Of a stretch of 64,000 nucleotides of DNA, positions 39,883-59,342 are shown in pieces. Within the stretch, counting starts at the first letter, position 1. Each line of letters starts with the position of its first letter. A program made the translations under genes and the position numbers. The stretch lies in IMG/VR virus record IMGVR_UViG_3300022752_000016. One strand, 5' to 3'. A model generated the notes under the pieces. The model saw only the letters and a program-made list of their open reading frames with translations. It was not told where the DNA came from and did not search any database. The DNA comes from a virus. Lineage: Duplodnaviria; Caudoviricetes.

Positions 39883-40624
39883 TAAAATGAATAATTTAAC
39901 AGAAATATTTTCACAAAATGTGTTAATCGATGAAAATACAAAAATTCTAGATGATCCTGTACGACATTGTATAAAAAAGAATTTTTTACCATATGATGTA
40001 GCGATTGGGATGTATAATGAAATTAAACAAATTGATAATACTTTATTAAAACATTTCACCAGAAATGGTAGTAATATGTATGAACTTATAGGAAATTATA
40101 ATGTGATTCCAATCGCATTTAACCTAATAGGTTATCTAAATAGCGGAAGTTTTCTCAAATCACTAGAAGATGTTACAGGTATTAAAGGATTGATATCCGA
40201 TCCATATATTTTAGGTGCTGGATATAGTAAGATTTATAATGGAGATAGAATAAAAGTTCATACTGATTTTAATTGGAATGATAACTTAAAATTACATAGA
40301 GCATGTTCTTTAATTATTTACCTAAGCCCTGATTGGAAAGAAGAGTATGGTGGAGCGTTAGATTTTTACGACAAATTTGGTGAAAATATTGTATCAACTG
40401 TGCCATGTTTATTTAATACCTGTTTAATTTGGAACTATAATAAATTTGGATTTCATGGCTGTACACAACCAGTACAATGTCCAAGTGATAAATTTAGAGC
40501 AGCATTTAGATTATTTTACTATACCAGTAATAGCACTTTTAAAGAAGATGATCCTCCTCACAGAAGCCAATATTGGAAAGATAACAAAACAAATTTACCC
40601 TATGACATAAAAGGATATAAATGA
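39854..40624 (+). CDS. 2OG-Fe(II) oxygenase (prolyl-hydroxylase-like)
   Basis: HTD...HG...R facial-triad pattern; WKEEYGGAL; PCLFNTCLIW. Confidence 0.85.
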   Translation: MKSLEILLSNKMNNLTEIFSQNVLIDENTKILDDPVRHCIKKNFLPYDVAIGMYNEIKQIDNTLLKHFTRNGSNMYELIGNYNVIPIAFNLIGYLNSGSFLKSLEDVTGIKGLISDPYILGAGYSKIYNGDRIKVHTDFNWNDNLKLHRACSLIIYLSPDWKEEYGGALDFYDKFGENIVSTVPCLFNTCLIWNYNKFGFHGCTQPVQCPSDKFRAAFRLFYYTSNSTFKEDDPPHRSQYWKDNKTNLPYDIKGYK

Positions 40625-43243: not shown

Positions 43244-43253
43244 AATTCTTTCC

Positions 43254-43261
43254 TATAAATA
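43254..43261 (+). promoter_or_regulatory. T4-type late promoter TATAAATA (epimerase)
   Basis: Exact consensus in the intergenic gap. Confidence 0.7.
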
Positions 43262-43278
43262 AATTTAAAGGAGAAAAA

Positions 43279-44280
43279 TTGAAAATATTTATTACAGGTG
43301 TAGCAGGTTTTTTAGGTAGTCATGTAGCTGATAAGTTACTTGATTTGGGTCATACAGTACACGGCTGTGATAATTTGACAGGTGGCTATTTAGATAATGT
43401 AAGTAAAAATGTAAAGTTTTATAAAGGAGATTGTTGTAATCTAGATTTTATGGTAGCAGTAACAAAAGATATTGATATAATAGTACATACTGCTGCTACT
43501 CCGCATGAAGGATTAAGTATTTTTAGTCCATATTTTATTACTACAAATGTTTTTCAAGCAAGCGTAAGTACGATAAGCGCAGCCATTCAGAATAAAGTTA
43601 AAAAGTTTATATATTGTTCAAGCATGGCAAGATATGGATCACAAGAATATCCTTTTGTTGAAACTCAAACTCCGTCGCCCATAGATCCATACGGTATTGC
43701 CAAAGTAGCAGGTGAAGAAGTACTAAAAACGTTGGCTAGTTTAAATAAAATGGATTATATTATTGCTGTTCCACATAACATAGTTGGTCCAAGACAAAGA
43801 TATGATGATCCTTTCCGTAATGTCATGAGTATAATGATTAACAGATGTTTGCAAGGTAAACCTCCAATCATATATGGTGATGGTAGTCAAAAACGTTGTT
43901 TTAGTTATATAGGGGACAGTGTATTTTGTCTAGAGAAACTTATACTTGATAAAACGATTAAAAATGATATTTTTAATATTGGTCCAGATGAAGAATTTGT
44001 TTCAATTAAAGAACTTGCAGAGTTAGTTATTAAAGAATTAAAATTTGTAGGAGATCCTATTTATTTTCCAGATAGACCTAGAGAGGTCAAATATGCTACC
44101 TGTAGTGCAGAAAAAGCAAGAAAAGAATTGGGATATCGTACAAAAACATCACTTGTTGAATGTATACATGAAACTGCGGAATATATTAAAAAGCGTGGGG
44201 CTAAACCATTTGATTATACATATCCATTGGAATATATTAATGACAAAACTCCAAAAACATGGTCAGAAAGGTTAATGTAA
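43279..44280 (+). CDS. NAD-dependent nucleotide-sugar epimerase/dehydratase (extended SDR)
   Basis: ITGVAGFLG (GxxGxxG); SSMARYG; YGIAK (YxxxK); TTG start with SD AAGGAG. Confidence 0.92.
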   Translation: MKIFITGVAGFLGSHVADKLLDLGHTVHGCDNLTGGYLDNVSKNVKFYKGDCCNLDFMVAVTKDIDIIVHTAATPHEGLSIFSPYFITTNVFQASVSTISAAIQNKVKKFIYCSSMARYGSQEYPFVETQTPSPIDPYGIAKVAGEEVLKTLASLNKMDYIIAVPHNIVGPRQRYDDPFRNVMSIMINRCLQGKPPIIYGDGSQKRCFSYIGDSVFCLEKLILDKTIKNDIFNIGPDEEFVSIKELAELVIKELKFVGDPIYFPDRPREVKYATCSAEKARKELGYRTKTSLVECIHETAEYIKKRGAKPFDYTYPLEYINDKTPKTWSERLM

Positions 44281-45674
44281 TGTTATTTGTTTTTGAAAAT
44301 ATAATAAAAGTAGAAGGTCAGGTAGATATAAATTTAAACCTAATAGGTTGTACTGATAAAAATAAATCAGGACATCCTAGATTCAATCCGTCACCTGTTG
44401 TATTTTCTTTACTTCATAAACAGAAAACAGGTCAACTTAAAAAAGTTCATAGAGAACCAATGATTGCATTGCAAACACCTCCTATAGGTCTTCCATATAT
44501 TATTCCAGTTGGTGTTGCACATAATCCTGATGATTGGTGTGGCCCGGATAAGTTTAAAAATGGTTTAAATGCAAATTATCCTGATAGGAAAAATCTTTTT
44601 GAATGGCTAAATGAAGACTACCTAAAAGATTTACAAAATGGTATGGCATATTTATTAATTGATCAAACTCATGAAGGATATCATCCTGATTGGCTATTTC
44701 AATGGTTTCATAACTCATGTGATTCATTCGGAATTCCTGTAAATAGAATTATATATCTTACAGGGGATATGAATGCTGTAAAAAATTATAAATATTGGGC
44801 AGATACTTTTGGATTAGATTCAAGATTAAATATTATTTCTTGGCCACATTTTGAAACAGTTATTTTTGATATTTGTTCAGGTTACCATGGATTTGATGAA
44901 AATATTAAATTTGCAAATGATCATGTATTACCGCCTGGCTTAAAAATTCGTAAAAAGTTTCCGCATTTAATTGATCAATTAAATTATAAAAAAGCAAATT
45001 ACGAAAAAATTAAAACATTTGATATTTTACAAAAAAGAACAAGAAAACATAGGGTACAATTTTATAAGGGTTTGTATGATGCTGATCTTATTAAAGACAA
45101 TATAGTTTCAATGAATACTTTTGACTATGATTCCGATATTTTTCTAAATAAGAATTCGTATTTAGAAATAATTAAAAATCTACCATTATTACCTTTTGAC
45201 AACCCTAAAAATTATGAAAAAGATGATTTTGAATCAAGTGATGGAGCAAACTATATATTATATTTAAATGATGAAACTATGTATAATTCATTTTGTACAG
45301 TAGTAAGTGAAGTATTTTATAATGATGAAGATCCATGCTTTATAAGCGAAAAAACATTTAAACCAATTGCATGTTCTCAGCCTTTTATAATTCTAGGTAA
45401 TTATTTATTTTTAGAAACTTTAAAAGAATTAGGTTATAAAACTTTTCATCCTATCATCAATGAAAAATATGATACTTATGATGACCCTATTAGATTAAGA
45501 GTTATAATATTAGAAATGAAAAGAATTCAAAAGTTAAGTCAAAAAGAAAAATTAGAATGGTATTTAAGTATGCAAGATATTTTACAACATAATTTTGAAA
45601 TTTTTAACAAAAGACAACGATGTGATAACGTGACACATCTAATTAATATGTTACTAAGTTGTACGGAATTTTAA
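44280..45674 (+). CDS. GT10-like glycosyltransferase-like protein 3
   Basis: VVSEVF...ISEKTFKPIACSQPFII...LGYKTFHP; shares YLLIDQTHEGY...WLFQWFH with FLIDQSLEGY...WLWDWFH in 41804. ATG 44280 overlaps the upstream TAA. Confidence 0.5.
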   Translation: MLFVFENIIKVEGQVDINLNLIGCTDKNKSGHPRFNPSPVVFSLLHKQKTGQLKKVHREPMIALQTPPIGLPYIIPVGVAHNPDDWCGPDKFKNGLNANYPDRKNLFEWLNEDYLKDLQNGMAYLLIDQTHEGYHPDWLFQWFHNSCDSFGIPVNRIIYLTGDMNAVKNYKYWADTFGLDSRLNIISWPHFETVIFDICSGYHGFDENIKFANDHVLPPGLKIRKKFPHLIDQLNYKKANYEKIKTFDILQKRTRKHRVQFYKGLYDADLIKDNIVSMNTFDYDSDIFLNKNSYLEIIKNLPLLPFDNPKNYEKDDFESSDGANYILYLNDETMYNSFCTVVSEVFYNDEDPCFISEKTFKPIACSQPFIILGNYLFLETLKELGYKTFHPIINEKYDTYDDPIRLRVIILEMKRIQKLSQKEKLEWYLSMQDILQHNFEIFNKRQRCDNVTHLINMLLSCTEF

Positions 45675-45675
45675 T

Positions 45676-46713
45676 ATGCGTGACATTCAAATACACAGAA
45701 TTAATAAAAAATTAGAAAATACCGATAAAGTAATCATAGCTTTGGGATGTAGTTTTGCTGAAGGACAAGGGGCAATATATGACTCGTTATATGATAACTA
45801 TAAGTGGCATTATCAAGGTATGGGTAAAGGTATGCTTGTTACTGTATCAGACAGCGAAAAAAAAGAAATTATGTATCAATATCCTGACAAAGTAACTGTA
45901 GATAAAGCCTCAGGAAAACTTGATTTTTCAATTATGGAAATAGAAAATAGTTTTTCACACGTATTAGCTGAAAAATACTTTGATAATGAATACGTGGCAA
46001 TAAACATGGGAATAAGAGGTACAGGAAATCGTGGACAAATAAAAGAATTATATTTTCGACCTGAAATCAATTGGCATAGAGTAAAAAAAATTATTGTTGT
46101 TTATTGTGTAAGTGGAATTGAACGATTTGATTTTGTAAATGATTTATGGGACACGCATTACCATTGGAAAGCAATGTGGCCAAAAAAGGAAATTGATGAA
46201 AATGACAGAAAACCTTTATGGGAAGGTTATGGGCAAACTGTATATAGTGAAAAGCAAGCTATAATTGAACAAATTGCTAACGTACAAGAACTTTTAACTT
46301 GGTGTAAACTGCACAATGCAAGTTTAATAATTACTCCAGGTTTTGAACAACGATATACAAAAGAGTATTTTAATGAAAATTTAAATACAATAGTTAATAG
46401 GAATTCTAGACAAGAAATAATTGAAAACTCATTTTTAAAAAATATTTTAGATGTTAAAAAAGTATCACATGATTACCTTTCACTATTATGGCCTTGGAAT
46501 AATATGTTTTATCCAGATGATAATGATACATTTATACGTTTATGTATGTCTCAAGAAAATGACGAGATAAAAAATAGTACAGATTGGTTTTGGCAATTTT
46601 TAGGTAATAGATCCCCTAAAGGATATATTACGGGATGCGCTCATCCAGGCGAAAAAGGTCATGATTTATTTGCAAAACATTTGTATTTTCATATTTTAAA
46701 AAATAACCTATAA
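45676..46713 (+). CDS. SGNH/GDSL-fold protein 1 (esterase or O-acyltransferase)
   Basis: ALGCSFAEG (block I), NMGIRGTGN (block II), HPGEKGH (block V). Confidence 0.7.
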   Translation: MRDIQIHRINKKLENTDKVIIALGCSFAEGQGAIYDSLYDNYKWHYQGMGKGMLVTVSDSEKKEIMYQYPDKVTVDKASGKLDFSIMEIENSFSHVLAEKYFDNEYVAINMGIRGTGNRGQIKELYFRPEINWHRVKKIIVVYCVSGIERFDFVNDLWDTHYHWKAMWPKKEIDENDRKPLWEGYGQTVYSEKQAIIEQIANVQELLTWCKLHNASLIITPGFEQRYTKEYFNENLNTIVNRNSRQEIIENSFLKNILDVKKVSHDYLSLLWPWNNMFYPDDNDTFIRLCMSQENDEIKNSTDWFWQFLGNRSPKGYITGCAHPGEKGHDLFAKHLYFHILKNNL

Positions 46714-46714
46714 A

Positions 46715-47734
46715 ATGCACTATTCAAAAAAAATTTTAGATATTAATGAAAATTTGAAAAAAACTAAGAAATTATTTATTTCTTCAGGGTGTTCATATGT
46801 TGCAGGCAAGGCTGCATGGCCAAAATCTTTTATGGAAGAGTTTAGACCAAATTTTGACAATTATTATTATACTTGGGATCATTTAAGCAATAAACAAAAA
46901 GAATTAGCAATTAAAAAATTTCCAATTATAACAAATAATAATAATGTTTTTGAAACCATTAATTTAGAAGTTGATAATTCATTTACATCAATATTGCACA
47001 AAAATTACATTCCTAATTATACAATAGCTAATCTTGGAGAACAAGCAAAAGGATTATTTTCAAGTGTAATGAATTTATATGTTACACCAATTCAATTTGC
47101 ATTGGCAGATGAAATTATTTTATTTTTTTGTCCCACTGATTTACAACGATTTGATATCTTAAGCGATGAATATGCTTTTACAGACTCAAACGTTGCGGCA
47201 TGCAGATTATTTAACACATTTTGGCCTTTTGATAATGAAAAAAAAGATCCTATAGGACTTTTACAACTTGGGTATTCTCAGGCTGTACATAGTCTTAGAT
47301 TTGAAATCGTACATGCTATTATGTGTTTTAAATTGCTAATTAATTGGATAGAACAGTATAAGGCAAAATTAATTATATTTCCTGCTTTTAACAAGATTTA
47401 TAACAAAAATTATTTTTATGAAAATTTGGATATAACAATACTGCGTGATAAAACATTAAAACAAAAAGAAATAAAACATTTTACATTTAGAGATAGTTCA
47501 AATTTTTATATAGATAATTTTGTTCCATGGGATAATTTTACAACATTTGATGGTTTTAATACTTTTTTTGATTTAGCGTTTGGTCAAGAAAAAAACTATG
47601 ATCCAAATATTGAAATGCAAAGTTTGGTTGGACCAAATGGCGGAACATTAAATCAATTTATTATGAAATGTGGTCATCCAGGCGTTGAGGCACATGAATT
47701 ATTGGCAAAAAAAATTTATGAAAAATATTTTTAA
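46715..47734 (+). CDS. SGNH/GDSL-fold protein 2
   Basis: SSGCSYVAG, NLGEQAKG, HPGVEAH. Confidence 0.65.
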   Translation: MHYSKKILDINENLKKTKKLFISSGCSYVAGKAAWPKSFMEEFRPNFDNYYYTWDHLSNKQKELAIKKFPIITNNNNVFETINLEVDNSFTSILHKNYIPNYTIANLGEQAKGLFSSVMNLYVTPIQFALADEIILFFCPTDLQRFDILSDEYAFTDSNVAACRLFNTFWPFDNEKKDPIGLLQLGYSQAVHSLRFEIVHAIMCFKLLINWIEQYKAKLIIFPAFNKIYNKNYFYENLDITILRDKTLKQKEIKHFTFRDSSNFYIDNFVPWDNFTTFDGFNTFFDLAFGQEKNYDPNIEMQSLVGPNGGTLNQFIMKCGHPGVEAHELLAKKIYEKYF

Positions 47735-48635
47735 TTATTTAAAAGAAAAATATACAATAAAAATTGATACTATTACTAAAAAAGAATCTTTTCATTTTAA
47801 AACATTTGATTCTTTGCCAATCAATTCAAATTTTTATGATTTTATAAATCATCCATTTTATAATTATCTTGATGACAATGTTCAATTAAAAAATTATTGT
47901 GGTAGTGATAATTATGAATTATTAAAAAAAAATATTATCCACCAACCATTGGAATGGAAATATGGTTTAAAAAAAATTACATATAGACTTAATAAAAGTG
48001 GATTCCGTACATATGAATTTAAAGACATTGATTGGAGAAATTGTATTGTTTTATTGGGTTGTAGTAATACGTTCGGAATAGGTGTTGATGAAGACGAAAC
48101 ATTATCGTATTTTTTAGAAAAATTAACAAATAAACAAGTAGTTAATTTAGGGATGGGGGGAATTTCAAATGATGTTATTATTGAAAAGTTAAACATTATT
48201 ATTAATAAATTTGAGATTCCTACTAACATTATTATTAATTGGACTTCACCTGACAGGTTTAGGTATTATTTAAAAAACAAATTCATAGATTGTGGTAATT
48301 GGATCACTGAGGAGAGTGAAAGAGAGTTGCAAAAAAATCAACTTTTTGGAAAAGAATTAGAAACAGTAAATTTAAATACACTTTATTATAATTTAAATGC
48401 CATAGAAACAAATATATATTTTAAAATGCGTAATTTAAGTAATATTTCTAAAGCACTTTCTAAAAATAATTTTAATTTAATTACATTTAGTTGCTTCCCT
48501 GACGCAGCATATTATAGTGAATCAGATTACTTTTTTCCAGATGACTCTAAGGTAAATAAGGCAAGAGATTTAATACACCCAGGCTCGGATTATAACCAAA
48601 TAGTAGCTGAGACAATTGTAGGTAAATTAAAATGA
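47718..48635 (+). CDS. SGNH/GDSL-fold protein 3
   Basis: LLGCSNTFGIG, NLGMGGISND, RDLIHPG. ATG 47718 preferred over the track start 47670 because it reduces the overlap. Confidence 0.7.
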   Translation: MKNIFNYLKEKYTIKIDTITKKESFHFKTFDSLPINSNFYDFINHPFYNYLDDNVQLKNYCGSDNYELLKKNIIHQPLEWKYGLKKITYRLNKSGFRTYEFKDIDWRNCIVLLGCSNTFGIGVDEDETLSYFLEKLTNKQVVNLGMGGISNDVIIEKLNIIINKFEIPTNIIINWTSPDRFRYYLKNKFIDCGNWITEESERELQKNQLFGKELETVNLNTLYYNLNAIETNIYFKMRNLSNISKALSKNNFNLITFSCFPDAAYYSESDYFFPDDSKVNKARDLIHPGSDYNQIVAETIVGKLK

Positions 48636-50146
48636 GTTTTTACAATCAAAATGCAGACCTTGCCGAAAAACAACTTAAATTTATTAGTAAAACTATGTGT
48701 TATGCTAAATGGGCGCAAGTTAGCATTCATTTAACAAATGGTATGACACAAAGTTGTTACCATCCACCTTTACATAAAATTGACACAAAAGAAATAAAAA
48801 ATAATCCAAGTGCACTTCATAATACAAAACAAAAGAAACAAGAAAGAAAATTAATGCTTCAAGGAGAAAGACCTGAAGGGTGTAATTATTGTTGGAAAAT
48901 AGAAGATAGCGGTGCAAGAAGCGATAGAATTTATAGATCAGGTGAATATTGGGCTCAAAATGCACGTATCGATATCATTGAAAATTTAGATACAGGTGAC
49001 ATAGATCCAAGATATGTAGAAGTAAATTTTAATCAGGCTTGTAATTTTAAGTGTATGTATTGTAGTCCTCATTTGAGCACAGCATGGGAAGATGAAATTA
49101 AAAAATATGGACCCTATTTATTAACTCATAATGAAAATACTAAAAAACATAATGATTTACATTCTTTAAAAAAACTTGGTCTTATGCCGTTAAAAATCAA
49201 ACAGAACGAAAATCCTTATGTAGATGCTTTTTGGCAATGGTGGCCTAAACTTTACAACAGTTTGGAAGTTTTTAGGCTGACAGGAGGCGAACCATTAATG
49301 GATATTAATACATATAAAATTTTAGATTATATTTATAATCATCCAAATGCTTGGTTAGAGTTAAGCGTTACTAGTAATTTTTGTCCGCCTAAACAGGAAT
49401 TAATGGAAAAATTTATTGAAAAAGTAAAAAAATTAGAAGAAATACAAATTTGGAATGATCCTAATAGGTTTAATTCGGGCTCGGGTAATAATTGGTATGT
49501 TAATATGGCTTTAAAACATTTTAGTTTATTTATAAGCCTTGACAGTGTAGGAAAACAGGCAGAGTATATTCGTTATGGCTTAGATTTTAATCTAATGACC
49601 GAAAACATATATCAATTTTTAAACAATACTAAAAACACAAATTTAACCTTTATTAATACATTTAATGCTTTAAGTGTTATAAAAATTAAAGAATTTCTAG
49701 AATATATTCTAGACTTACGTTCAATTTATAGTAAAGACAATCAAGGAGTTCAGTATATACCAATAAGCGATCCATATACAAAACATCCTGATTACGTTAT
49801 AAACCCAAGGCAAAGAATATGGTTCGATTTACCTATTTTACGAAATCCAATTTGGCAAAGTTTTCTTATTTTACCGAAAAAATATGATACATACATTGTT
49901 GATGCGATTAATTTTATGGAAAAGCATAAGGATACTGATAATTTTGTTGGTTTTTATGATTTTGAAATAGATAAACTAAAAAGAAATTTAACTATTTTAA
50001 AAGAAAATCGTTTTGTTGATAATGATGCTAAAAATCATAGAAAAAACTTTATTGAATTTTTTAAACAGTATGATGCAAAAAAAAATATTTCTTTTAGTAA
50101 AGCTTTTCCTGAATTTGAAAACTTTAAGGAAGAATTATGTTTATAA
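48632..50146 (+). CDS. Radical SAM enzyme with N-terminal twitch-like Cys cluster (paralog of 38497)
   Basis: CNFKCMYC; LTGGEPLM; MCYAKW...SCYHP...GCNYCW. Confidence 0.9.
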   Translation: MSFYNQNADLAEKQLKFISKTMCYAKWAQVSIHLTNGMTQSCYHPPLHKIDTKEIKNNPSALHNTKQKKQERKLMLQGERPEGCNYCWKIEDSGARSDRIYRSGEYWAQNARIDIIENLDTGDIDPRYVEVNFNQACNFKCMYCSPHLSTAWEDEIKKYGPYLLTHNENTKKHNDLHSLKKLGLMPLKIKQNENPYVDAFWQWWPKLYNSLEVFRLTGGEPLMDINTYKILDYIYNHPNAWLELSVTSNFCPPKQELMEKFIEKVKKLEEIQIWNDPNRFNSGSGNNWYVNMALKHFSLFISLDSVGKQAEYIRYGLDFNLMTENIYQFLNNTKNTNLTFINTFNALSVIKIKEFLEYILDLRSIYSKDNQGVQYIPISDPYTKHPDYVINPRQRIWFDLPILRNPIWQSFLILPKKYDTYIVDAINFMEKHKDTDNFVGFYDFEIDKLKRNLTILKENRFVDNDAKNHRKNFIEFFKQYDAKKNISFSKAFPEFENFKEELCL

Positions 50147-50235
50147 TTAAATTTATTAAAAAGATTATAAAAGAATACAAATATAGAAAAAGAATTAAAG
50201 AATTACGAAAACGTGATCCTTTTATATATAAATAA
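50137..50235 (+). CDS. 32-aa basic peptide (MFIIKFIKKIIKEYKYRKRIKELRKRDPFIYK)
   Basis: Translated by hand; SD AAGGA at 50126-50130; fills the gap before the carbamoyltransferase. Confidence 0.65.
   Translation: MFIIKFIKKIIKEYKYRKRIKELRKRDPFIYK
50227..50234 (+). promoter_or_regulatory. T4-type late promoter TATAAATA (carbamoyltransferase)
   Basis: Exact consensus, 3 nt before ATG 50238; overlaps the end of the 32-aa ORF. Confidence 0.55.
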
Positions 50236-50237
50236 TT

Positions 50238-51719
50238 ATGCAATATATAGGAATTTCAAGTCATTTTCATGACGCTGCAATAACTCTTTTGTCCAATAAT
50301 GGGGATATATTATTTGCAGGACATAGTGAAAGATATAGTAAAACTAAACATGATTCACTATTAAATATTGATTTAATTAATGATCTGTTATACTATGACA
50401 ACAAATATGATAAGTTTTCAATTCATTATTATGAAAGACCTTTTATAACACAATTAAGACAAATTAGAGCAGGTCAAAAACTTGATTTTGTTACAACTAA
50501 AAGTCGTATAGGCAAACCAATTTTACAAATGTTAGGCAATCCTGATATAAAAAATTATAATCACCATTTAAGTCATGCAGCCGCGGGTTTTCAAACCAGT
50601 CTATTTGATAATGCTACAGTTGTTATAATAGATGCAATTGGAGAATTCGATACAATATCAATTTATGATGCTTATTATAATGATAAAGGATATGCAAAGT
50701 ATAAAAAACTATATAGTCAAAAATATCCTAATAGCATTGGATTATTTTATAGTGCAATGACTAAAAGAGTTGGATTGAAACCTTTAGATGAGGAATATAT
50801 TTTAATGGGCATGTCAGCTTATGGGATAGATAAACATAGTGGGGAAATGTTAAAATTCTTTAATGATATAAAAAATATTGAAATGAATACTAATTTGCAT
50901 ATAGGGGTAGATGATAATTTTTTATTTGGTGCTGATTTAATGGATATTGCATGTAGTACTCAAGTGGTTGTTGAGCAGTTGATTGAAATAGTTATGAGTA
51001 AAGCAAAATTACTAGGACGAAGTAATAATCTAGTTTATGGAGGAGGCGTGGCTTTAAATTGTTTAGCAAACAGGAAATTAGGAAATTTTTTTGATAAAAT
51101 TTGGATAATGCCGAATCCTGGTGATGCAGGGAGTAGTCTAGGTGCTGCTGCATTAGGATATGGAAAAAGATTAAAATGGGAAAATGCATTTTTAGGATAT
51201 GATATTAAAGGTGTGTATCCAATAGATAATATTCTTAAAGAACTAAACAGTAATAAAATAGTAGGTGTTGCCAATGGGCGTGCAGAATTTGGACCAAGAG
51301 CCTTAGGTAATCGAAGTTTATTAGCTGATCCACGCGGTAATTTAATTAAGGATAAAGTTAACGAGATTAAGCGTAGACAAAAATTTAGACCATTTGCTCC
51401 TGTGATACTTGAGGAATATGTAGATGAGTATTTTGTAATGCCAAAAGGATTTAGTATCAGTCCATATATGCAAGTAGTTGCAAAATGTAAACAACCTGAA
51501 TTATTACCAGCTATTATACATCATGATGGTACGAGTAGGGTACAAACAGTAGGTAAGGACAATACGGGAATAAGAAAACTTTTAGAAAAATGGTATGATT
51601 TAACAAAATGTCCTTTGTTATTAAATACATCACTAAACATACGCGGTGAACCTATGGTTAATGATAAAAAGGATGCAGTTAGATTTGAAAATCTGTACGG
51701 AGTTAAAGTTTTTTCATAA
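50238..51719 (+). CDS. Carbamoyltransferase (NodU/CmcH/TobZ family)
   Basis: FHDAA; HHLSHAA; GGVALNC; GRAEFGPRALGNRS; RQKFRPFAP; NTSLN. Confidence 0.93.
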   Translation: MQYIGISSHFHDAAITLLSNNGDILFAGHSERYSKTKHDSLLNIDLINDLLYYDNKYDKFSIHYYERPFITQLRQIRAGQKLDFVTTKSRIGKPILQMLGNPDIKNYNHHLSHAAAGFQTSLFDNATVVIIDAIGEFDTISIYDAYYNDKGYAKYKKLYSQKYPNSIGLFYSAMTKRVGLKPLDEEYILMGMSAYGIDKHSGEMLKFFNDIKNIEMNTNLHIGVDDNFLFGADLMDIACSTQVVVEQLIEIVMSKAKLLGRSNNLVYGGGVALNCLANRKLGNFFDKIWIMPNPGDAGSSLGAAALGYGKRLKWENAFLGYDIKGVYPIDNILKELNSNKIVGVANGRAEFGPRALGNRSLLADPRGNLIKDKVNEIKRRQKFRPFAPVILEEYVDEYFVMPKGFSISPYMQVVAKCKQPELLPAIIHHDGTSRVQTVGKDNTGIRKLLEKWYDLTKCPLLLNTSLNIRGEPMVNDKKDAVRFENLYGVKVFS

Positions 51720-51727
51720 GTAGACTT

Positions 51728-54700
51728 ATGATTAGAGATGTTTTTTATTATGGCAAGAAGCCTAACATTCATCCAAGAGAAAGATTTGCTAAAAACCTTG
51801 AAGAAGCAAGAGAGTTATCAAATACAGAGCATTTTTGGATAATAAATGAATTTTGTGATTATAAAAATTTTGATTGGGATTTCGATTACGAATTTTTACC
51901 AGACGAGGATGTATGGGCGCAGGATCATATAAATATATGGCCAAGTTTATATCAAAAAGATAGTGGAACATGGTTAGTTCCAAATAATAATAGTTTAGTG
52001 AGAATTTACAGAAATGATGTACAACCTGTAGATAGAAAAATAATTAAAGATAATTGGATTATTTATTCACAAATAGACAGTAAAAAATTTGATTTAAAAT
52101 GGCATCCTGATCCACTTGATCCGCCCTTTATTTATGTATGGGGGAATAAATTTATACCAGCAGAACTGCAACCTACAATAGAATATTATACACCTAGTGC
52201 TGTTGAACGAAAATACATGGGTGAAGTTGAGGTATTACCACAAATGGAACGTTGGGTAATGGTTCAAGATATAACTGAGGATTTTGATTTAACTTGGAGA
52301 CCTGATCCAAGAGAACCTCCGTACATTTACGTTTGGGGAAACAAATATATACCTGGAGAGTTACAATCTACAATTGAATATCATACTCCTAATGCAATCA
52401 ATAAAAAATATATGGGTAATGCACCTGTTTTACCTGATAAAAATTGGAAAATTATACAGGAAATTGATAAAACTAAATTTGATTTATCTTGGAGACCTGA
52501 TCCACGTGAACCTCCATACATTTATACTTGGGGAAATAAGTTTATTCCTGCTGAAATAATGCCTACAATTCAATACTTATGTCCAAACGCTACTGAACAT
52601 AAGTACATGCAAGAACCATTAGAGGTATTACCTGAATATGAAAAATGGGTAGAAGTACAGGCTATCGATAAAACTAAATTTGATTTATCTTGGAGACCTG
52701 ATCCACGTGAACCTCCATATATTTACGTTTGGGGAAACAAATATATACCTGGTGAATTATTACCTACATTGCAATATAATTGTATAGGAGCAAAAGAATA
52801 CAAATATATGGGTGATGTTGAGGTTATTCCAGAACACGAAAAATGGGTAGAAGTACAGGCTATCGACAAAACAAAATTTGATTTATCTTGGAGACCTGAT
52901 CCACGTGAACCTCCATACATTTATACTTGGGGAAATAAATATATACCTGGTGAATTAATGCCAACTTTAGAATATAGATGTATTGGAGCAACAGAACGCA
53001 AATATATGGGTGATGTTGAGGTTATTCCAGAACACGAAAAATGGGTCGAAATTCAACTAATTGATAAGACAACATTTGACATGACATGGAGACCTGATCC
53101 AAGAGAACCTCCATATATTTACGTTTGGGGGAATAAGTTTATTCCTGCAGAATTAATGTCAACTTTAGAATATAGATGTATTGGAGCAAAAGAATACAAA
53201 TATATGGGTGATGTTGAGGTTATTCCAGAACACGATAAATGGGTCGAAGTGCAGTTAATTGATAAGACAAAATTTGACATGACATGGAGACCTGATCCAA
53301 GAGAACCTCCATATATTTACGTTTGGGGGAATAAGTTTATTCCTGCAGAATTAATGCCAACTTTAGAATATAGATGTATTGGAGCCACTGAGCGAAAATA
53401 TATGGGAAATATTGATGTATTGCCTGAGTTTAATAGATGGGTCGAAGTTCAAACTATTGATAAGACTAAATTTGATATGACATGGAGACCTGATCCAAGA
53501 GAACCACCTTATATCTATGTATGGGGAAACAAATATATACCAGGCGAATTAAAATCAACAATTGAATACCATACCCCTAATAGTACTGAACGTAAGTATA
53601 TGGGAGATGTTGATGTTTTACCAGAAACAGAACGTTGGAATATTGTTCAAAAACCTAAGGATTTTGATTTAACATGGAGACCTGACCCAAAAGAACCACC
53701 ATACATTTATGTATGGGGCAATAAATATATACCTGGGGAGATACAATCTACAATAGAATATCATACACCTGACGCTCAAGAAATAAAATATATGGGTGAC
53801 ATAGAAGTTGTACCATATTATGAACATTGGAATATTGTGCAAGAAGTCGGTGATGATTTTGATCTTTGTTGGAGACCTGATCCAAGAGAACCACCATACA
53901 TTTATGTATGGGGGAACAACTATATACCTGGCGAGGTTAAAGCTACAATTGAATATCATACACCTAATAGTATTGAACGCAAGTATATGGGTATTGCCAG
54001 TGTTAAACCTGACAAAAATTGGAAAATTACACAGGATATTGATATTGAAAAATTTGATTTATGTTGGAGACCTGATCCTAGGGAGCCTGCATACATTTAT
54101 ACTTGGGGTAATAAGTATGTAAGTGCTGAACTAGTACCAACCATTGAATATTATACTCCTAACGCCACTGAACGTAAGTATATGGGTGAAGTAGACGTTA
54201 TTCCTGAATTTGATCGTTGGGTAGAAGTACAACCAATTGACAAATCAACATTTGATATGACATGGAGACCTGATCCAAGAGAACCACCATACATTTATGT
54301 ATGGGGTAATAAACATATTCCCGCCGAACTAAAACCCACGCTAGAATATTATACTCCAAACGCAACAGATAGAAAATATATGGGTAATGTTGAAGTTTTA
54401 CCAATAAACGAAAATTGGAAAATTACCCAAGAAGCTATAAACTTTGATTACACATGGAGACCGGACCCAAGAGAACCTGATTATATCTATGTATGGGGTA
54501 ACAAGTATATACCTGGCGAGTTAAAACCTACAATTGAATACATTTGTCCTAACGCTATTGAAAAAAAGTATATGGGGAATGTTGAAGTAGCCTCTGAATG
54601 GGACAAATATAGAATACTGATCCCTGTTGATAAGAATAGTTTTGATTTTAGTTGGAGACCTGATCCAAGAGAGCCTCCCTATATTTACGTTTGGGGCAAT

Positions 54701-57556
54701 CAAACTAATAGTGCCACTATAGAACCTACGATAGAATATCATTGCACAGGTGCTGTTGAACGCAAATACATGGTTGACAGAGTAGCTACAACGTTACCAG
54801 ATATTGAAAAATTTAAAATTTTAATTTCAGTAAAAGATTTTGATTTTAGTTGGAGACCAGATCCTCATAGTCCTCCTTATATCTACGTGTTTGGTAACCA
54901 ATGGCATGATGCAATGACTGAACCTACAGTAGAATATCATGTACCTGGTGCGAAAGAAAAAAAATATATAACAGATATTATAGCGAAGGTAAGTCCTACA
55001 CAGGAAAATTGGAAAACACTTATCCCTGTTGTAGATTTTGATTATAGCTGGAGGCCTAACCCACACAGTACTCCATACATTTATGTATTTGGAAATCAAT
55101 GGAATCCTATTGAATTAGAGCATACAGTTGAATACCATACACCTGGGGCAAAAGACTACAAATATATAACAGATATTGTAGCAAATCTTAAACCAACTAA
55201 CACTGAAAAACATTGGAAAAGGTTGTTACCTGTTGAAAGTTTTGATTATAGTTGGAAACCTGATCCAAGAGAACCTGCATTAATATATGTATTTGGAAAT
55301 AAATGGAATGATTCTAAGACTGAGCCTACTATTGAATATCATTGTGAAGGTGCTACAGAACGAAAATACTTAGATTTTCCTGTAGCTAAACCCACAGTTG
55401 AATTTAAATATTGGTCCATATCAAATAATTACGATCTAGAATCATTTGATTTTAGTTGGAGACCTAATCCGCATAGTCCACCACAAATTTATCAATGGGA
55501 AAATAATGGTCCAAGATATAATGTACCAGGTGCTACAGACGTTGTATTAATGAAAAGAATTGATACTGACTATGCACCGAAAATTAATAAATATTTTATT
55601 AAAACTAACCTTACCGATTTGATTAGTGAACATCCAAATGAAGTATTTTGGGCTTTAAATCCTGATCTAAATTATGATAAGTTTGACTTTACATGGAAGC
55701 CTAATAAAGAAAATTTTACACACATAAATGTTTTTGGTAATGAATATAGTAAAAATACCCACACATATTATATAAACGGGCCAATGTATAACTTGGGATA
55801 TAGGCAATATAATTATATAAATAATCAAAAATTTAGTGGGGATACAAACCTTTCAATGTTTTTTATTGATAGGGGTAATGATTATAGTCAAAAAAGATTC
55901 GATGCACTTAAAACAAAGTACCCACAATTACAAAAAACAAGATTTCTAAATTCTTGGGTAGATACTATTAATCGTTGCACTCAAAAATCTTATACAAAGT
56001 TCCTTTGGGTTTTAAGTAGCGAATTAGATTATAGTGAATTTGAGTTTGACTTTTATCCTAGTCCATGGCAAGAAAAAATGGTACATGTGTTTGGTACACA
56101 ATGGAGTCATTGGGGTAATACATACCTAATAAACAAGGAAACATTTGCAAATGATACTAAGTATATAAAAATTATTGAACATTTGTCATGTTTAAATTTT
56201 GTCAAAACTAAACGTGCAAAAGCTGTGGACATTATTTATGATATTGTCTATATTGACCACAAAAATACAAAAGTGGATAGTAATAAATTTAAATATGTGA
56301 TTGAGTATGAGGATAATTATTATAAAACTTTTAAAAAATTAATTGATGTTTTACCTAAAAAGAAAGAGCATTATATTTGGATAATAAGTTCAATCTGTGA
56401 TTATACAAACTTTAATTTTACTTACATTTGTGACCCATTTGCTAAAGAACAATTACACGTTTTTCCAAGCGATAAACAAAAATATGGTGACACATTTTTT
56501 GTAGACGTTAATAATTTACGTGAACAAATTGAAAATATTGAAAAACTTAAAAATTTTACAAAAATAAATTTTAATAATCATCAAACAGTAAAAAGATTAG
56601 ATTGTCCTAAATTTGTAATAGAGGATGATACTTTTGTAAATTCAATTAATGTTGAATTTAATTTTCCCTATGCAAATTTTGTAACGGTAGATAATTGTAC
56701 ATTAAATGTTGTGGACGATGATCCAATCAATTTGTGGGAAGAAGAAACAAAAAATATTATAGTGCAAAGTACAGGTAATACAAATATTATTATACCCAAA
56801 GAAGTAAAGAAATATGTAAAAAAAGAATTGTATGATTATCCTTATATCACTAAACGTGATAAATTACAATCAAGTTTTCCATTAGATATTGTTTTTTTAA
56901 GTAATGGTGAAAAAAATGCTGATGCAAACTATGAACATCTATTATCTGTAATAAAAAATAAACCAAATAGAGTAATAAGAGTTGATGGTATTAATGGTAG
57001 AAAAAATGCAAATTACGCAGTTGCAGATATTAGTAATACTCCTTGGATGTTTGTAGTATTTGCAAAGTTAAAAGTAAAAGAAAACTTTGATTGGGATTGG
57101 CAACCTGATAGAATGCAATTACCAAAACATTATATTTTTTATGCTAGGAATCCTGTTAATGGTTTGTTTTACGGACACCAAGCAATGATAGCATGGAATA
57201 AAAATATAGTTTTACAAACACAAGGAGTAGACTTAGATTTTACAATGGAAGGTAACCATGAAGTTGTTAAGATAGATAGCGGAACACCTTATTATAATAC
57301 AGATGAATATAGCACATGGAGGACTGCTTTTAGAGAGGTTATAAAATTGAAGTATTACAACAATAAAGAAAGTCAGCATCGTTTAAAAGTATGGTCAAGT
57401 ATAGCAGAAGGTGATTTTGCCCAATTTAGTTTACAAGGAGCAAAACATGCTATAGATTACTTTAATGCGGTTGATGGTAATATTGATAAATTAAAATTAA
57501 GTTACGAATGGGCTTGGTGTAAAGAATATTTTCTTAAAAAGTATGATAGAATTTAA
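51728..57556 (+). CDS. 1,942-aa tandem-repeat protein with degenerate GT-A-like C-terminal modules
   Basis: 18 copies of FD.(S/T)WRPDPREPPYIYVWGNK. The C-terminus LDIVFLSNGE...RVDGING...WRTAFREVIKL parallels 37535..38497. Confidence 0.8.
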   Translation: MIRDVFYYGKKPNIHPRERFAKNLEEARELSNTEHFWIINEFCDYKNFDWDFDYEFLPDEDVWAQDHINIWPSLYQKDSGTWLVPNNNSLVRIYRNDVQPVDRKIIKDNWIIYSQIDSKKFDLKWHPDPLDPPFIYVWGNKFIPAELQPTIEYYTPSAVERKYMGEVEVLPQMERWVMVQDITEDFDLTWRPDPREPPYIYVWGNKYIPGELQSTIEYHTPNAINKKYMGNAPVLPDKNWKIIQEIDKTKFDLSWRPDPREPPYIYTWGNKFIPAEIMPTIQYLCPNATEHKYMQEPLEVLPEYEKWVEVQAIDKTKFDLSWRPDPREPPYIYVWGNKYIPGELLPTLQYNCIGAKEYKYMGDVEVIPEHEKWVEVQAIDKTKFDLSWRPDPREPPYIYTWGNKYIPGELMPTLEYRCIGATERKYMGDVEVIPEHEKWVEIQLIDKTTFDMTWRPDPREPPYIYVWGNKFIPAELMSTLEYRCIGAKEYKYMGDVEVIPEHDKWVEVQLIDKTKFDMTWRPDPREPPYIYVWGNKFIPAELMPTLEYRCIGATERKYMGNIDVLPEFNRWVEVQTIDKTKFDMTWRPDPREPPYIYVWGNKYIPGELKSTIEYHTPNSTERKYMGDVDVLPETERWNIVQKPKDFDLTWRPDPKEPPYIYVWGNKYIPGEIQSTIEYHTPDAQEIKYMGDIEVVPYYEHWNIVQEVGDDFDLCWRPDPREPPYIYVWGNNYIPGEVKATIEYHTPNSIERKYMGIASVKPDKNWKITQDIDIEKFDLCWRPDPREPAYIYTWGNKYVSAELVPTIEYYTPNATERKYMGEVDVIPEFDRWVEVQPIDKSTFDMTWRPDPREPPYIYVWGNKHIPAELKPTLEYYTPNATDRKYMGNVEVLPINENWKITQEAINFDYTWRPDPREPDYIYVWGNKYIPGELKPTIEYICPNAIEKKYMGNVEVASEWDKYRILIPVDKNSFDFSWRPDPREPPYIYVWGNQTNSATIEPTIEYHCTGAVERKYMVDRVATTLPDIEKFKILISVKDFDFSWRPDPHSPPYIYVFGNQWHDAMTEPTVEYHVPGAKEKKYITDIIAKVSPTQENWKTLIPVVDFDYSWRPNPHSTPYIYVFGNQWNPIELEHTVEYHTPGAKDYKYITDIVANLKPTNTEKHWKRLLPVESFDYSWKPDPREPALIYVFGNKWNDSKTEPTIEYHCEGATERKYLDFPVAKPTVEFKYWSISNNYDLESFDFSWRPNPHSPPQIYQWENNGPRYNVPGATDVVLMKRIDTDYAPKINKYFIKTNLTDLISEHPNEVFWALNPDLNYDKFDFTWKPNKENFTHINVFGNEYSKNTHTYYINGPMYNLGYRQYNYINNQKFSGDTNLSMFFIDRGNDYSQKRFDALKTKYPQLQKTRFLNSWVDTINRCTQKSYTKFLWVLSSELDYSEFEFDFYPSPWQEKMVHVFGTQWSHWGNTYLINKETFANDTKYIKIIEHLSCLNFVKTKRAKAVDIIYDIVYIDHKNTKVDSNKFKYVIEYEDNYYKTFKKLIDVLPKKKEHYIWIISSICDYTNFNFTYICDPFAKEQLHVFPSDKQKYGDTFFVDVNNLREQIENIEKLKNFTKINFNNHQTVKRLDCPKFVIEDDTFVNSINVEFNFPYANFVTVDNCTLNVVDDDPINLWEEETKNIIVQSTGNTNIIIPKEVKKYVKKELYDYPYITKRDKLQSSFPLDIVFLSNGEKNADANYEHLLSVIKNKPNRVIRVDGINGRKNANYAVADISNTPWMFVVFAKLKVKENFDWDWQPDRMQLPKHYIFYARNPVNGLFYGHQAMIAWNKNIVLQTQGVDLDFTMEGNHEVVKIDSGTPYYNTDEYSTWRTAFREVIKLKYYNNKESQHRLKVWSSIAEGDFAQFSLQGAKHAIDYFNAVDGNIDKLKLSYEWAWCKEYFLKKYDRI
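52050..55560 (+). repeat. Coding tandem array, 18 units of 192-204 bp (mode 198 bp / 66 aa)
   Basis: TGG of the W-x-P-D/N-P core at 52100, 52295, 52490, 52691, 52889, 53087, 53285, 53483, 53675, 53870, 54065, 54263, 54455, 54653, 54851, 55049, 55253 and 55457. Confidence 0.95.
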
Positions 57557-57561
57557 AAAAT

Positions 57562-57696
57562 ATGTTATTACTTTTTTCATCTCATTTAAATCATTCTATT
57601 TTACAAAATTTATCACAGGAAGAAAGATTTGTAGTTGCTTTTAATTTTTTTATGAAGGGAAATATAGGTACTAATGAATGGATGTTAAAACTATAA
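57562..57696 (+). pseudogene. C-terminal remnant of a 2OG-Fe(II) oxygenase (TIGR02466-like)
   Basis: MLLLFSSHLNHSILQNLSQEERFVVAFNFFMKGNIG matches the LxLFPSxLxHxVxxNxSxxxRxxxAFN tail. An in-frame TAG at 57547-57549 means the HxD half is absent. Confidence 0.65.
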
Positions 57697-57699
57697 ATA
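57692..57699 (+). promoter_or_regulatory. T4-type late promoter TATAAATA (tmRNA precursor)
   Basis: Exact consensus just upstream of the acceptor piece. Confidence 0.7.
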
Positions 57700-57709
57700 A
57701 AGAATAAAG

Positions 57710-57774
57710 AATTGTTGTATGAAGTTGAAGGAAAAGTGCTGCGGACGCGGGTTCGACTCCCGCCTGGTCCACCA
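57710..57774 (+). ncRNA. ssrA: Permuted tmRNA, acceptor piece (T arm, 3' acceptor strand, ACCA)
   Basis: GGAC-GCGGG-TTCGACT-CCCGC-CTGGTCC-A-CCA ends at 57774. The 5' boundary is approximate, just downstream of TATAAATA 57692-57699. Confidence 0.92.
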
Positions 57775-57813
57775 TAAGGAAATATCCATAAGGAAATATC
57801 CATAAGGAAATAT
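57772..57813 (+). repeat. Three tandem 14-bp copies of CCATAAGGAAATAT
   Basis: 57772-57785, 57786-57799 and 57800-57813; the first copy begins with the tmRNA CCA and the last abuts ATG 57814. Confidence 0.95.
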
Positions 57814-57999
57814 ATGAGAGTTACAAACACAGAATCAATTCAACTTACACCTAAAGATGGTAAATGGTATGCTATGCCAAATGACCAATACATTAGATGG
57901 AATTTTGATGAGAGAATTTGGGATTATATGATCACAAAAGAAGGGGACACAAAGCCTAGATTTTGGGATCAATTACCGGATGGTACGGTTTCCTTATGA
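57814..57999 (+). CDS. 61-aa Trp-rich protein encoded inside the tmRNA intervening segment
   Basis: SD TAAGGA upstream of ATG; the ORF fills the segment and its TGA ends 1 nt before tmRNA G1 (58001). Confidence 0.7.
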   Translation: MRVTNTESIQLTPKDGKWYAMPNDQYIRWNFDERIWDYMITKEGDTKPRFWDQLPDGTVSL

Positions 58000-58087
58000 T
58001 GGGCCAGACATGGTTTCGACGGGGTAAAGAGTACGGATATGGACAACACGGTAGGCGAAGACCGCAAATCTAGCAAAGCAAATAGAC

Positions 58088-58132
58088 GCAAATGACGACT
58101 ATTTTTATCAGGATCTCAAGCTAGCCGCTTGA
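58088..58132 (+). other. tmRNA tag reading frame ANDDYFYQDLKLAA*
   Basis: gca aat gac gac tat ttt tat cag gat ctc aag cta gcc gct tga; the stop lies in hairpin CTCAAGC/GCTTGAG. Confidence 0.92.
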
Positions 58133-58171
58133 GCCTGACGGGGTAGGAAAGACCTTGTAACCAAACAAACC

Positions 58172-58193
58172 TAGGCTCTACGGAGCCTATTTT
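58172..58193 (+). terminator. Hairpin/terminator at the end of the tmRNA coding piece
   Basis: TAGGCTC-TACG-GAGCCTA-TTTT (7-bp stem, C-UACG-G tetraloop). Confidence 0.75.
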
Positions 58194-58328
58194 ACCCAAT
58201 ATCTATAGACATTGCGTAAAAAAGTGTTATAGTTTGCACTAATACTTTAATTAATTAGGTTAGATTATATGCACTAAATATTAATCTACACCTGATTTTT
58301 ATCAGGTATTATTTTATAAGGAACTAGA

Positions 58329-59342
58329 ATGAAAAAACTTTTATTAGCGTCACTTATTGCAGGTGCTACATCAGTTGCAGTTGCACAAACAACTGTATAT
58401 GGTTTGGCTGATGCATATTATGGACATCAAACAAATGCAAAAAATAGCAATCAAGTAAATGCTGGTGGTATGACAACTAGTTACATTGGTATCAGTGCAT
58501 CTGAAAAAATTGGCGATCTACAAGCTAGAGCAGTATTAGAGACATTTTTGCGTCCTGATACCGCACAACAAGGTCGTTTTAATAATGATACTTTTTATGC
58601 AAGAAACGCATATGTTGCACTATCATCTAAAGCAGGTGAAGTACAACTTGGTCGTGTAACTACACCATACTTTATCTCAACAATTGCATTTAATGCATTA
58701 GGTGATAGCTTTGTATTCAGTCCAACAGTAACATCAAGGGTTGGAGTTAATAACTTTAATCTTGGTGGTGGTGGAAGTGATACAGGATGGAATAACTCAG
58801 TTTTAGTAAAAACTAGTATGGCTGGTTTAGCACTTACAGGTGTCTATAGTGCAGGAGTTACTGATGATAGCAACGCAAAATTATCAGGTAAAAGCGTTGG
58901 CGCCATGTACTTTCAAGGTCCAATTGGTTTAACTGCAACTTGGCAAGACGTAGAGCAAGGCGCAGGTAAAGCAAGTATGTCATCAACAATCGTTGGTGCA
59001 AGTTATGATCTTAAAGTAGCAAAGGTGTTTGCTCAACATGAGACTGTTAAAAACAGCGATAATGTAACAAAAGAAGATAGAGGTTATACAGTAGGCGCAA
59101 CAATGCCAATGGGTAAAAATACTCTAATGGCAAGCTATGCAAAGAAAGACCATGATTTCACAAATGGTAGAACTGCTGAAACAGCAAGCTGGGCAGTAGG
59201 TGTAAGCCATGCACTAAGCAAGCGTACTGATTTATATGCTGCTGTACGTGATACAAATTATACTAATGACGGTTTAAATAGAACAAATGCAAACTTCGTC
59301 GATACCCGTGTAACAGGTGTAGGCGTACGTCATCGTTTTTAA
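58329..59342 (+). CDS. Outer-membrane porin (Gram-negative/Neisseria-Burkholderia-type)
   Basis: Signal peptide MKKLLLASLIAGATSVAVA-Q; TVYGLADAY; GASYDLKVAK; LSKRTDLYA; C-terminal HRF (BAM-type Phe). Confidence 0.92.
   Translation: MKKLLLASLIAGATSVAVAQTTVYGLADAYYGHQTNAKNSNQVNAGGMTTSYIGISASEKIGDLQARAVLETFLRPDTAQQGRFNNDTFYARNAYVALSSKAGEVQLGRVTTPYFISTIAFNALGDSFVFSPTVTSRVGVNNFNLGGGGSDTGWNNSVLVKTSMAGLALTGVYSAGVTDDSNAKLSGKSVGAMYFQGPIGLTATWQDVEQGAGKASMSSTIVGASYDLKVAKVFAQHETVKNSDNVTKEDRGYTVGATMPMGKNTLMASYAKKDHDFTNGRTAETASWAVGVSHALSKRTDLYAAVRDTNYTNDGLNRTNANFVDTRVTGVGVRHRF

Follow-up and report, generated by a model that had tools for sequence, protein, structure and literature searches.

The locus described here raises the question of whether the spacer of a permuted transfer-messenger RNA (tmRNA) gene, a segment expected to be lost from the mature RNA, can carry a protein gene that is itself under selection, and what such a gene would be doing there. 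The locus lies in a stretch of 64,000 nucleotides (hereafter, the window) of the IMG/VR virus record IMGVR_UViG_3300022752_000016 (Duplodnaviria; Caudoviricetes), from a freshwater phage, where the two pieces of a tmRNA gene flank an intervening segment (IVS) of 226 nt that holds an open reading frame (ORF) of 61 amino acids, here called P0001. We consider it about three in four likely that this is a functional-looking phage permuted tmRNA whose excised spacer serves as a swappable slot for a small accessory gene, with P0001 as captured cargo.

A permuted tmRNA gene interrupted by a 226-nt spacer

The original prediction had placed a two-piece tmRNA at this locus on the basis of the sequence, and both programs used to check that call bear it out. 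ARAGORN reported a permuted tmRNA at 57682-58223 (+) with the tag ANDDYFYQDLKLAA*, and the Rfam model RF04321 (tmRNA_permuted) aligned to 57713-58132 over model positions 1-213 of 213, with a score of 114.9 bits (gathering score, 47). The predicted landmarks all hold, namely the ACCA end at 57774, G1 at 58001, the 226-nt spacer, the 61-aa ORF and the 1-nt gap that separates it from the tmRNA (Table 1). The order of the parts is permuted, with the T arm, the acceptor 3' strand and ACCA lying upstream of the acceptor 5' strand, and the two acceptor strands are complementary over 7 bp that include a G3:U pair. The tag frame called by ARAGORN resumes on an alanine codon and has a hydrophobic ..LAA terminus. 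If bacterial permuted tmRNAs are a guide, the mature two-piece tmRNA would lack the IVS. A group I intron was detected neither in the window nor in the related loci examined, and a blastn search with the locus returned T-arm-sized matches only. Baseplate hub (PHROG E = 1e-39) and baseplate wedge (PHROG E = 1e-253) genes are found on the same contig, and the permuted tmRNA locus is therefore phage-borne.

Pattern scans of IMG/VR yielded more than 130 related phage tmRNAs. The relatives L003, L005, L007, L008, L004 and L164 likewise exceeded the RF04321 gathering score end to end. With the betaproteobacterial model RF01850 the window scored 36.8 bits, below the gathering score of 84, which was passed by the relatives L168 (119 bits), L241 (103.5) and L163 (87.8).

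Table 1. Features of the permuted tmRNA locus (positions in the 64,000-nt window).
Feature	Positions	Strand	Basis
TATAAATA octamer, 14 nt upstream of tmRNA body	57692-57699	+	read from sequence
tmRNA acceptor piece (3' part of tRNA-like domain)	57713-57774	+	RF04321 alignment, ARAGORN
P2 strand TGTTGT	57713-57718	+	RF04321 alignment, ARAGORN
T arm	57747-57763	+	read from sequence
Acceptor 3' strand CTGGTCC	57764-57770	+	read from sequence
ACCA	57771-57774	+	read from sequence
Three perfect tandem copies of 14-nt CCATAAGGAAATAT	57772-57813	+	TRF score 84, 100% matches
Intervening segment (IVS), 226 nt	57775-58000	+	unaligned insert between RF04321 model positions 86 and 87
Shine-Dalgarno AAGGA (third repeat copy), 5 nt before ATG	57804-57808	+	read from sequence
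Cargo gene P0001, 61 aa, ATG 57814 to TGA 57997-57999	57814-57999	+	translation
Closing stem 3' strand GTTTCCTTA, pairs with TAAGGAAAT right after ACCA	57988-57996	+	minimum free energy (MFE) fold
tmRNA coding piece	58001-58195	+	RF04321 alignment, ARAGORN tag
Acceptor 5' strand GGGCCAG	58001-58007	+	read from sequence
Tag frame ANDDYFYQDLKLAA, stop TGA	58088-58132	+	ARAGORN
3' hairpin then TTTT	58172-58189	+	scan flagged minus strand only; plus-strand palindromic stem read from sequence

The spacer ORF as a selected gene

Judged by its relatives, the 61-aa ORF is a real, selected protein gene, because it has diverged homologues with 10 invariant residues, its non-synonymous differences lie far below its synonymous ones, and its fold is predicted by AlphaFold (AF2) with a predicted local distance difference test (pLDDT) value of 88. 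Dinucleotide shuffling of the IVS produced an ATG-initiated ORF of at least 61 codons in 91 of 20,000 trials, and 70 of 20,000 randomly drawn antisense windows of 226 nt contained one. A word-indexed protein search returned the identical protein alone, on 8-11 freshwater contigs, and an exhaustive HMMER search recovered homologues of 63-68 aa with 40-58% identity; additional members of the family are encoded on L406, L407/L279 and L408. In the family alignment, made from seven sequences (P0001, P0002-P0006 and P0012), 10 columns are invariant (TPKDGxWY, two more Trp, Met and DG). P0001 fits the resulting family pattern, which consists of a length of 60-68 aa, T-P-K-D-G-x-W-Y, W29, W36, M39 and D-G near the C-terminus. 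The remaining HMMER matches (P0007-P0011 and P0013) were long unrelated repeat proteins (TPR, beta-propeller, LRR, Ig) and were discarded.

The closest homologue, P0002 (56-58% identical), is encoded in the permuted-tmRNA spacer of contig L164 (Rfam, 120 bits) in the same layout. Between P0001 and this copy, 30 of 34.7 synonymous sites differ (proportion pS 0.87, saturated) compared to 39 of 148 non-synonymous sites (pN 0.26). The AF2 model, computed from the seven-sequence alignment, is a four-stranded beta meander, and P0001 is confidently predicted to be a small all-beta protein.

Searches of Pfam, PHROG, PDB and BFVD gave no assignment for P0001, and the fold searches were without a match at E <= 0.001; with Pfam at E up to 5, the seven family members matched no family besides two chance-level ones. 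Structure neighbors from the Atlas (Tad2-like, DUF551) had TM scores of 0.5-0.6 in comparison with an Atlas model of low confidence and were not supported by Pfam, and they are regarded as unproven leads. No match to P0001 was found by tblastn in 50,697 phage records, and an exact 31-mer of the ORF had no match in metagenome_contigs, a collection that possibly does not include the window's own records.

Exchange of the spacer between tmRNA genes

The last 198 nt of the window IVS are identical (198/198) in two other contigs, L004 and L007. The tmRNA pieces of these contigs share only about 60-74% identity with those of the window, and their neighboring genes differ. The acceptor stem of L007 reads CGGGTCC/GGGCCCG compared to CTGGTCC/GGGCCAG in the window, a compensatory U:A to G:C change. 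RNA evidence was available as assembled metatranscriptome contigs, and in those from three riverine runs an ORF with 100% identity was joined to L007-type tmRNA flanks. An assembly chimera as the source of the identical IVS was rejected as unlikely, since both L007 flanks differ from those of the window and pair with each other via the compensatory change, and the junctions recur in independent RNA-library contigs. Deep short RNA contigs ending near 57772-57774 carried 1-3 mismatches and belong to other tmRNAs, and the RNA contigs showed no ends specific to this phage.

The same pattern is seen from the side of the tmRNA backbone. L070 is 97% identical to L007 in the acceptor piece and 93% identical in the coding piece, and its IVS is unrelated, 88 nt long and ORF-less. 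Near-identical backbones with unrelated spacers were also found for L130 compared to L101/L153, L221 compared to L120, L183 compared to L231, and L264 compared to L078/L161. Different cargos have common borders, the spacer starting ..TCCACCA-TAAGGAAGTTTAATG.. and ending ..AGTTTCTTTATGAT-GGGCC... These comparisons indicate that the spacer is exchanged between tmRNA genes as a unit, that is, as a cassette. They also indicate that the tmRNA does not need the spacer gene, because L070 has the L007 backbone with an ORF-less spacer.

Most related spacers are 55-100 nt long, start with AAAGCATAT.., end with ..ATATGCTTTTGAT and contain no ORF. With patterns directed at the tmRNA body only, ORFs of at least 30 codons were found in roughly one in seven to ten related tmRNAs, leaving about 85-90% of the spacers ORF-less, and the spacer ORFs of different relatives are mutually unrelated. 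In Rfam-confirmed permuted tmRNAs (87-136 bits) the cargo includes an 84-aa thioredoxin that carries WCGPC (Pfam 4e-21), a 111-aa GNAT-like protein, a PGDYG protein and several unassigned proteins of 39-68 aa. At the same position, tmRNAs identified without Rfam hold membrane peptides of 32-45 aa. The L130/L082 spacer encodes a 152-aa HNH-like ORF, whose 20.0 bits fall slightly below the Pfam cut-off of 21.4, and the L174/L206 spacer has a 101-aa ORF. Pairs of spacer ORFs gave dN/dS ratios (non-synonymous to synonymous substitution rates) of 0.11-0.34. The ACCA-TAAGGA..ATG layout of the P0001 spacer recurs in more than 30 other cargo-bearing IVS. ARAGORN misses the permuted tmRNAs of L004 and L007, which score 79 and 115 bits with Rfam.

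Three further observations were made on these spacers. The ORF-less IVS of L025 (107 nt) has a T-arm-like hairpin (GCTGG-TTCGACT-CCAGC). The tmRNA of L174 is located within an array of phage tRNA genes (199-637 and 4752-5638). The 101-aa cargo (L174 1935-2237, and L206) and the 111-aa cargo (L126 3185-3517 (-)) begin MRIKELTE.. and MQINEIMP.. behind GAATAAATA.

A closing stem that overlaps the translation signals

Each copy of the CCATAAGGAAATAT repeat contains both the Shine-Dalgarno sequence (SD) and the 5' strand of a stem that closes the spacer. L004 and L007, which carry the identical gene, have one copy. The opposite strand, GTTTCCTTA, also encodes the last codons of the ORF (..V-S-L) before TGA, and a single base, T58000, lies between that TGA and G1 of the tmRNA. 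In the MFE fold of 57704-58195, repeat copy 1 pairs with GTTTCCTTA and directly continues the acceptor stem, and copy 3, which precedes the ATG, is largely unpaired; in this model, the triplication of CCATAAGGAAATAT may unmask the SD.

Among the relatives, the closing stem has a mean of 7.8 contiguous pairs compared to 2.4 for the spacer ends of mismatched partners, in a comparison that omits the conserved xGAU leader before G1, and most relatives are complementary despite differing sequences. In ORF-less spacers the stem is AAAGCAUAU/AUAUGCUUU (AAAGCATAT../..ATATGCTTT) and has no SD. In ORF-bearing spacers it is UAAGGAR/UYCUUA, where the SD is the 5' strand and the final two codons are the 3' strand; next comes the UGA found ahead of G1 in almost every family member. 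The pattern of covariation indicates that the two ends of the spacer pair in a stem from which the SD as well as the final codons derive.

Free-standing homologues of the cargo

Outside the slot, the P0001 family is represented by P0003-P0006 and by the members on L406, L407/L279 and L408, all of which are genes of their own, closely packed among other small phage ORFs at loci that have no tmRNA. The C-termini of these free-standing members read ..DGTELxGV.., and both spacer copies (P0001 and P0002) end in ..DGTVSL, the last codons of the spacer copies being the spacer's closing stem. A stem-encoded end of this kind is what would be expected from a free-standing gene that was captured into the slot. 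Taken with the range of cargo, the family distribution suggests that P0001 most likely has an accessory (moron-like) role in the phage and no connection to trans-translation.

Just upstream of one free-standing homologue, contig L280 has two adjacent tRNAs with a CTA anticodon (1331-1405 and 1412-1483). They are labelled tRNA-Pyl by ARAGORN and look like amber-suppressor tRNAs on a phage contig.

Proposed explanation

In the explanation that we favor, the slot would have the invariant tmRNA ends (..TCCACCA and TGAT-GGGCC..) as its limits and would be closed by a stem in which the initial 8-12 nt of the spacer pair with its terminal 8-12 nt. Where a spacer bears a gene, the 5' strand of the stem, TAAGGAR, would act as the SD, and the 3' strand, TYCTTA-TGA, would contribute the final two codons together with the stop. 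The P0001 gene would have been captured from the family of free-standing small phage genes, its C-terminus ..DGTELxGV.. being replaced by the stem-encoded ..DGTVSL, and cassettes would be exchanged during co-infection by recombination across the short conserved flanks, which would serve as homology arms. The gene would be expressed from the tmRNA transcript. Ribosomes would load while the SD is free, at a stage when transcription has yet to pass through about 200 nt of ORF and reach the stem's 3' strand and the acceptor 5' strand; once the final ribosome has gone, the stem would fold together with the tRNA-like domain, and RNase P and 3' trimming would then release the two tmRNA pieces. In the variant found in the window, repeat copy 1 may form the stem while copy 3 stays free for its role as SD.

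Several points weigh against this explanation. Homologous recombination would have to work with conserved flanks of about 14-20 nt, which is short, and a site-specific or nuclease-driven exchange, for example by the HNH-like ORF of the L130 spacer, is possible. The IVS copies are identical, with zero substitutions, so that selection on this exact copy is deduced from the 58% homologue only. The RNA contigs that bear the ORF have a depth of 2-3 and contain unprocessed junctions only, and they may represent either the unprocessed form or DNA carry-over. The tmRNAs of L174 (342-nt spacer) and L130 (531-nt spacer) are uncalled by Rfam at the gathering score and rest on the acceptor-pairing rule, Rfam and ARAGORN not being designed for very long spacers. 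Finally, no SmpB (PF01668) was found on the 137-kb record, a fragment estimated to be 40% complete.

A broader version of the proposal is offered only tentatively, and we think it somewhat more likely to fail than to hold. It states that in aquatic T4-like phages the tmRNA spacer is a general recombination-prone, integron-like expression slot with the tmRNA ends and the SD/stop stem as its borders, that RNase P and 3' trimming yield a rescue RNA plus a mini-mRNA ending 1 nt past the stop, and that cargo output is coupled to, and possibly policed by, the tmRNA.

Alternative explanations

The alternative that survives best, which we nevertheless consider unlikely, is that the spacer and its ORF are a purely selfish element that homes into tmRNA spacers by means of a nuclease in cis, as the HNH-like ORF would provide, or in trans, that is harmless through RNA excision and brings the phage no benefit. 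The absence of divergence over 198 nt across backbones that are about 60-74% identical is what such an element would leave behind, and the breakpoints fall no more than about 12 nt from the sites of RNA processing. The HNH-like ORF in the L130/L082 slot is absent from the near-identical backbones of L101/L153, and homing-endonuclease genes in group I introns of tmRNA T-loops offer a precedent (PMC11915505). However, P0001 has no nuclease motif and no Pfam or PHROG match, the P0001 family and other cargo ORFs are under purifying selection, the thioredoxin and GNAT-like cargos resemble ordinary accessory genes, and the HNH assignment falls short of the curated Pfam cut-off.

It is improbable that the ORF acts mainly in cis, with its translation timing the formation of the closing and acceptor stems, and hence tmRNA maturation, and with the peptide sequence secondary. 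The overlap of the translation signals with the stem invites this idea, since the SD on one side and the last codons plus stop on the other are its two strands, and the stop lies 1 nt from G1; therefore, a terminating ribosome must cover the acceptor 5' strand. The layout also stays constant while the identity of the cargo is highly variable. On the other hand, the great majority of related tmRNAs have short spacers with no ORF to translate, the cargo ORFs are constrained at the protein level and include recognizable enzymes, and several of them stop 12-13 nt short of the spacer end.

We give very little credence to a dedicated tmRNA partner, that is, a cofactor directed at SmpB, the ribosome or ClpXP and co-expressed stoichiometrically from the precursor. 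Two diverged members of the family (P0001 and P0002) do occur in tmRNA spacers, and the Pfam and fold searches leave the function of P0001 without an assignment that could speak against such a role. At least six other family members are free-standing, however, and elsewhere the same slot holds thioredoxin, GNAT-like, PGDYG, HNH-like and membrane-peptide genes; the spacers of most related tmRNAs lack an ORF, and the L007 backbone itself occurs without the gene (L070). Of the two roles put forward in the original prediction, a cofactor of the tmRNA or of trans-translation is consequently not supported by the unrelated genes in the slot, the 85-90% of ORF-less spacers and the free-standing state of most homologues, whereas a passenger in a neutral site fits the varied cargo, the ORF-less relatives and the free-standing genes.

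A chance open frame in a spacer conserved as structured RNA only is hardly credible: the identical copies cannot by themselves show coding constraint and the IVS does fold with a strong closing stem, but the probability of such an ORF is about 0.004, the 40-58% homologues keep its length and 10 invariant residues with pN far below pS, the fold prediction is confident, and the typical ORF-less spacers have the other stem (AAAGCATAT../..ATATGCTTT) without an SD.

Relation to known systems

Two-piece tmRNAs have been published in aquatic T4-like myophages, namely Melnitz and pelagimyophages, with 53 among isolate genomes (PMC9004378). The window resembles the known permuted tmRNAs (PMC9004378; RF04321, PMC11915505) in the order of acceptor piece, IVS and coding piece, in the G3:U alanine identity pair and in the ..LAA tag, and it likewise belongs to a low-GC aquatic myovirus-like genome. 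Described permuted-tmRNA spacers are treated as short non-coding loops, whereas the window spacer holds a selected protein gene and those of its relatives hold many other genes. In the 2025 paper on the tmRNA database, the unusual IVS contents on record are a tRNA-Ala and a repetitive element, with no mention of spacer ORFs (PMC11915505), and our full-text literature search turned up no account of a protein gene located in the spacer of a permuted tmRNA. The phage two-piece tmRNA itself is already known.

Three systems provide partial parallels. In the 23S rRNA of Coxiella burnetii (PMC4990558), an IVS with an S23p ORF is likewise an ORF in a stem-closed segment excised from a stable-RNA precursor, and the element is regarded as selfish and mobile. 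The host RNA differs, and that IVS is removed by RNase III, whereas RNase P and 3' trimming are expected for the window tmRNA. P0001 is unrelated to S23p and has no Pfam match, the likeness being one of layout only; moreover, S23p is reported to be probably not made in vivo, whereas several phage spacer cargo families are under purifying selection. The group I introns of tmRNA T-loops (PMC11915505) also nest a protein gene in a removed part of ssrA, and the HNH-like ORF of the L130/L082 spacer recalls their cargo. In contrast to these, the window has no intron, the cargo lies between the CCA end and G1, removal would occur by tRNA-type end processing, and most cargo is non-nuclease. The PeSL cassettes of T4-type phages (PMC2839356, PMC4122927) likewise consist of small accessory ORFs with short conserved flanking motifs that include a stem, and, like the spacer cargo, their ORFs appear, disappear or are substituted from one close relative to the next, presumably through recombination at these motifs. 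PeSL cassettes lie between protein genes, whereas the spacer cassette is inside a structural RNA gene and has the tmRNA ends and the closing stem as its flanks.

A supposedly disposable stretch of a stable-RNA gene here turns out to be coding. Automated annotation will miss either the spacer gene or the tmRNA, so such genes are under-called. The locus would be a natural case of one transcript that serves as both a folded-RNA precursor and an mRNA, with the SD and the stop built into the closing helix, and it could serve as a model for competition between translation and RNA processing. As a probable hotspot of gene exchange between co-infecting phages, the slot is a place to seek small accessory, host-takeover and anti-defence genes, and its layout could be used to design constructs that express a peptide together with a structured RNA.

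Phage setting and neighboring genes

The parent of the window is a 137-kb IMG/VR virus record, a fragment with a CheckV completeness of about 40%. The G+C content of the window is about 30%, and its large genes are all on one strand. A scan of genome contigs with the tmRNA-body pattern gave 120 loci, none of which had a tmRNA by the filter; these are chance matches and give no clue to the host.

The TATAAATA octamer upstream of the tmRNA body may be a candidate promoter of the T4-late type, judging from its sequence. It occurs 19 times in the AT-rich window compared to 25 times expected from shuffles and lies upstream of only 5 of 115 related tmRNAs. Since it is neither enriched nor conserved upstream of the relatives, the octamer was set aside as a late promoter, and the late transcript envisaged in the original prediction was not confirmed.

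Directly downstream of the tmRNA is a Gram-negative porin gene (Pfam Porin_4, E = 1.3e-40; 58329-59342 (+)), and contig L004 has a gene for a periplasmic solute-binding protein in place of the porin at the same position after the tmRNA. Farther upstream, a block of radical-SAM-like and carbamoyltransferase genes spans 38497-51719 (+) (Pfam Carbam_trans_N/C, E = 1e-31 to 1e-50) and is followed by a 1942-aa ORF at 51728-57556 with weak domain matches only. After the baseplate genes, 10504-32274 (+) is one open frame of 7256 aa, which is extremely large for a phage.

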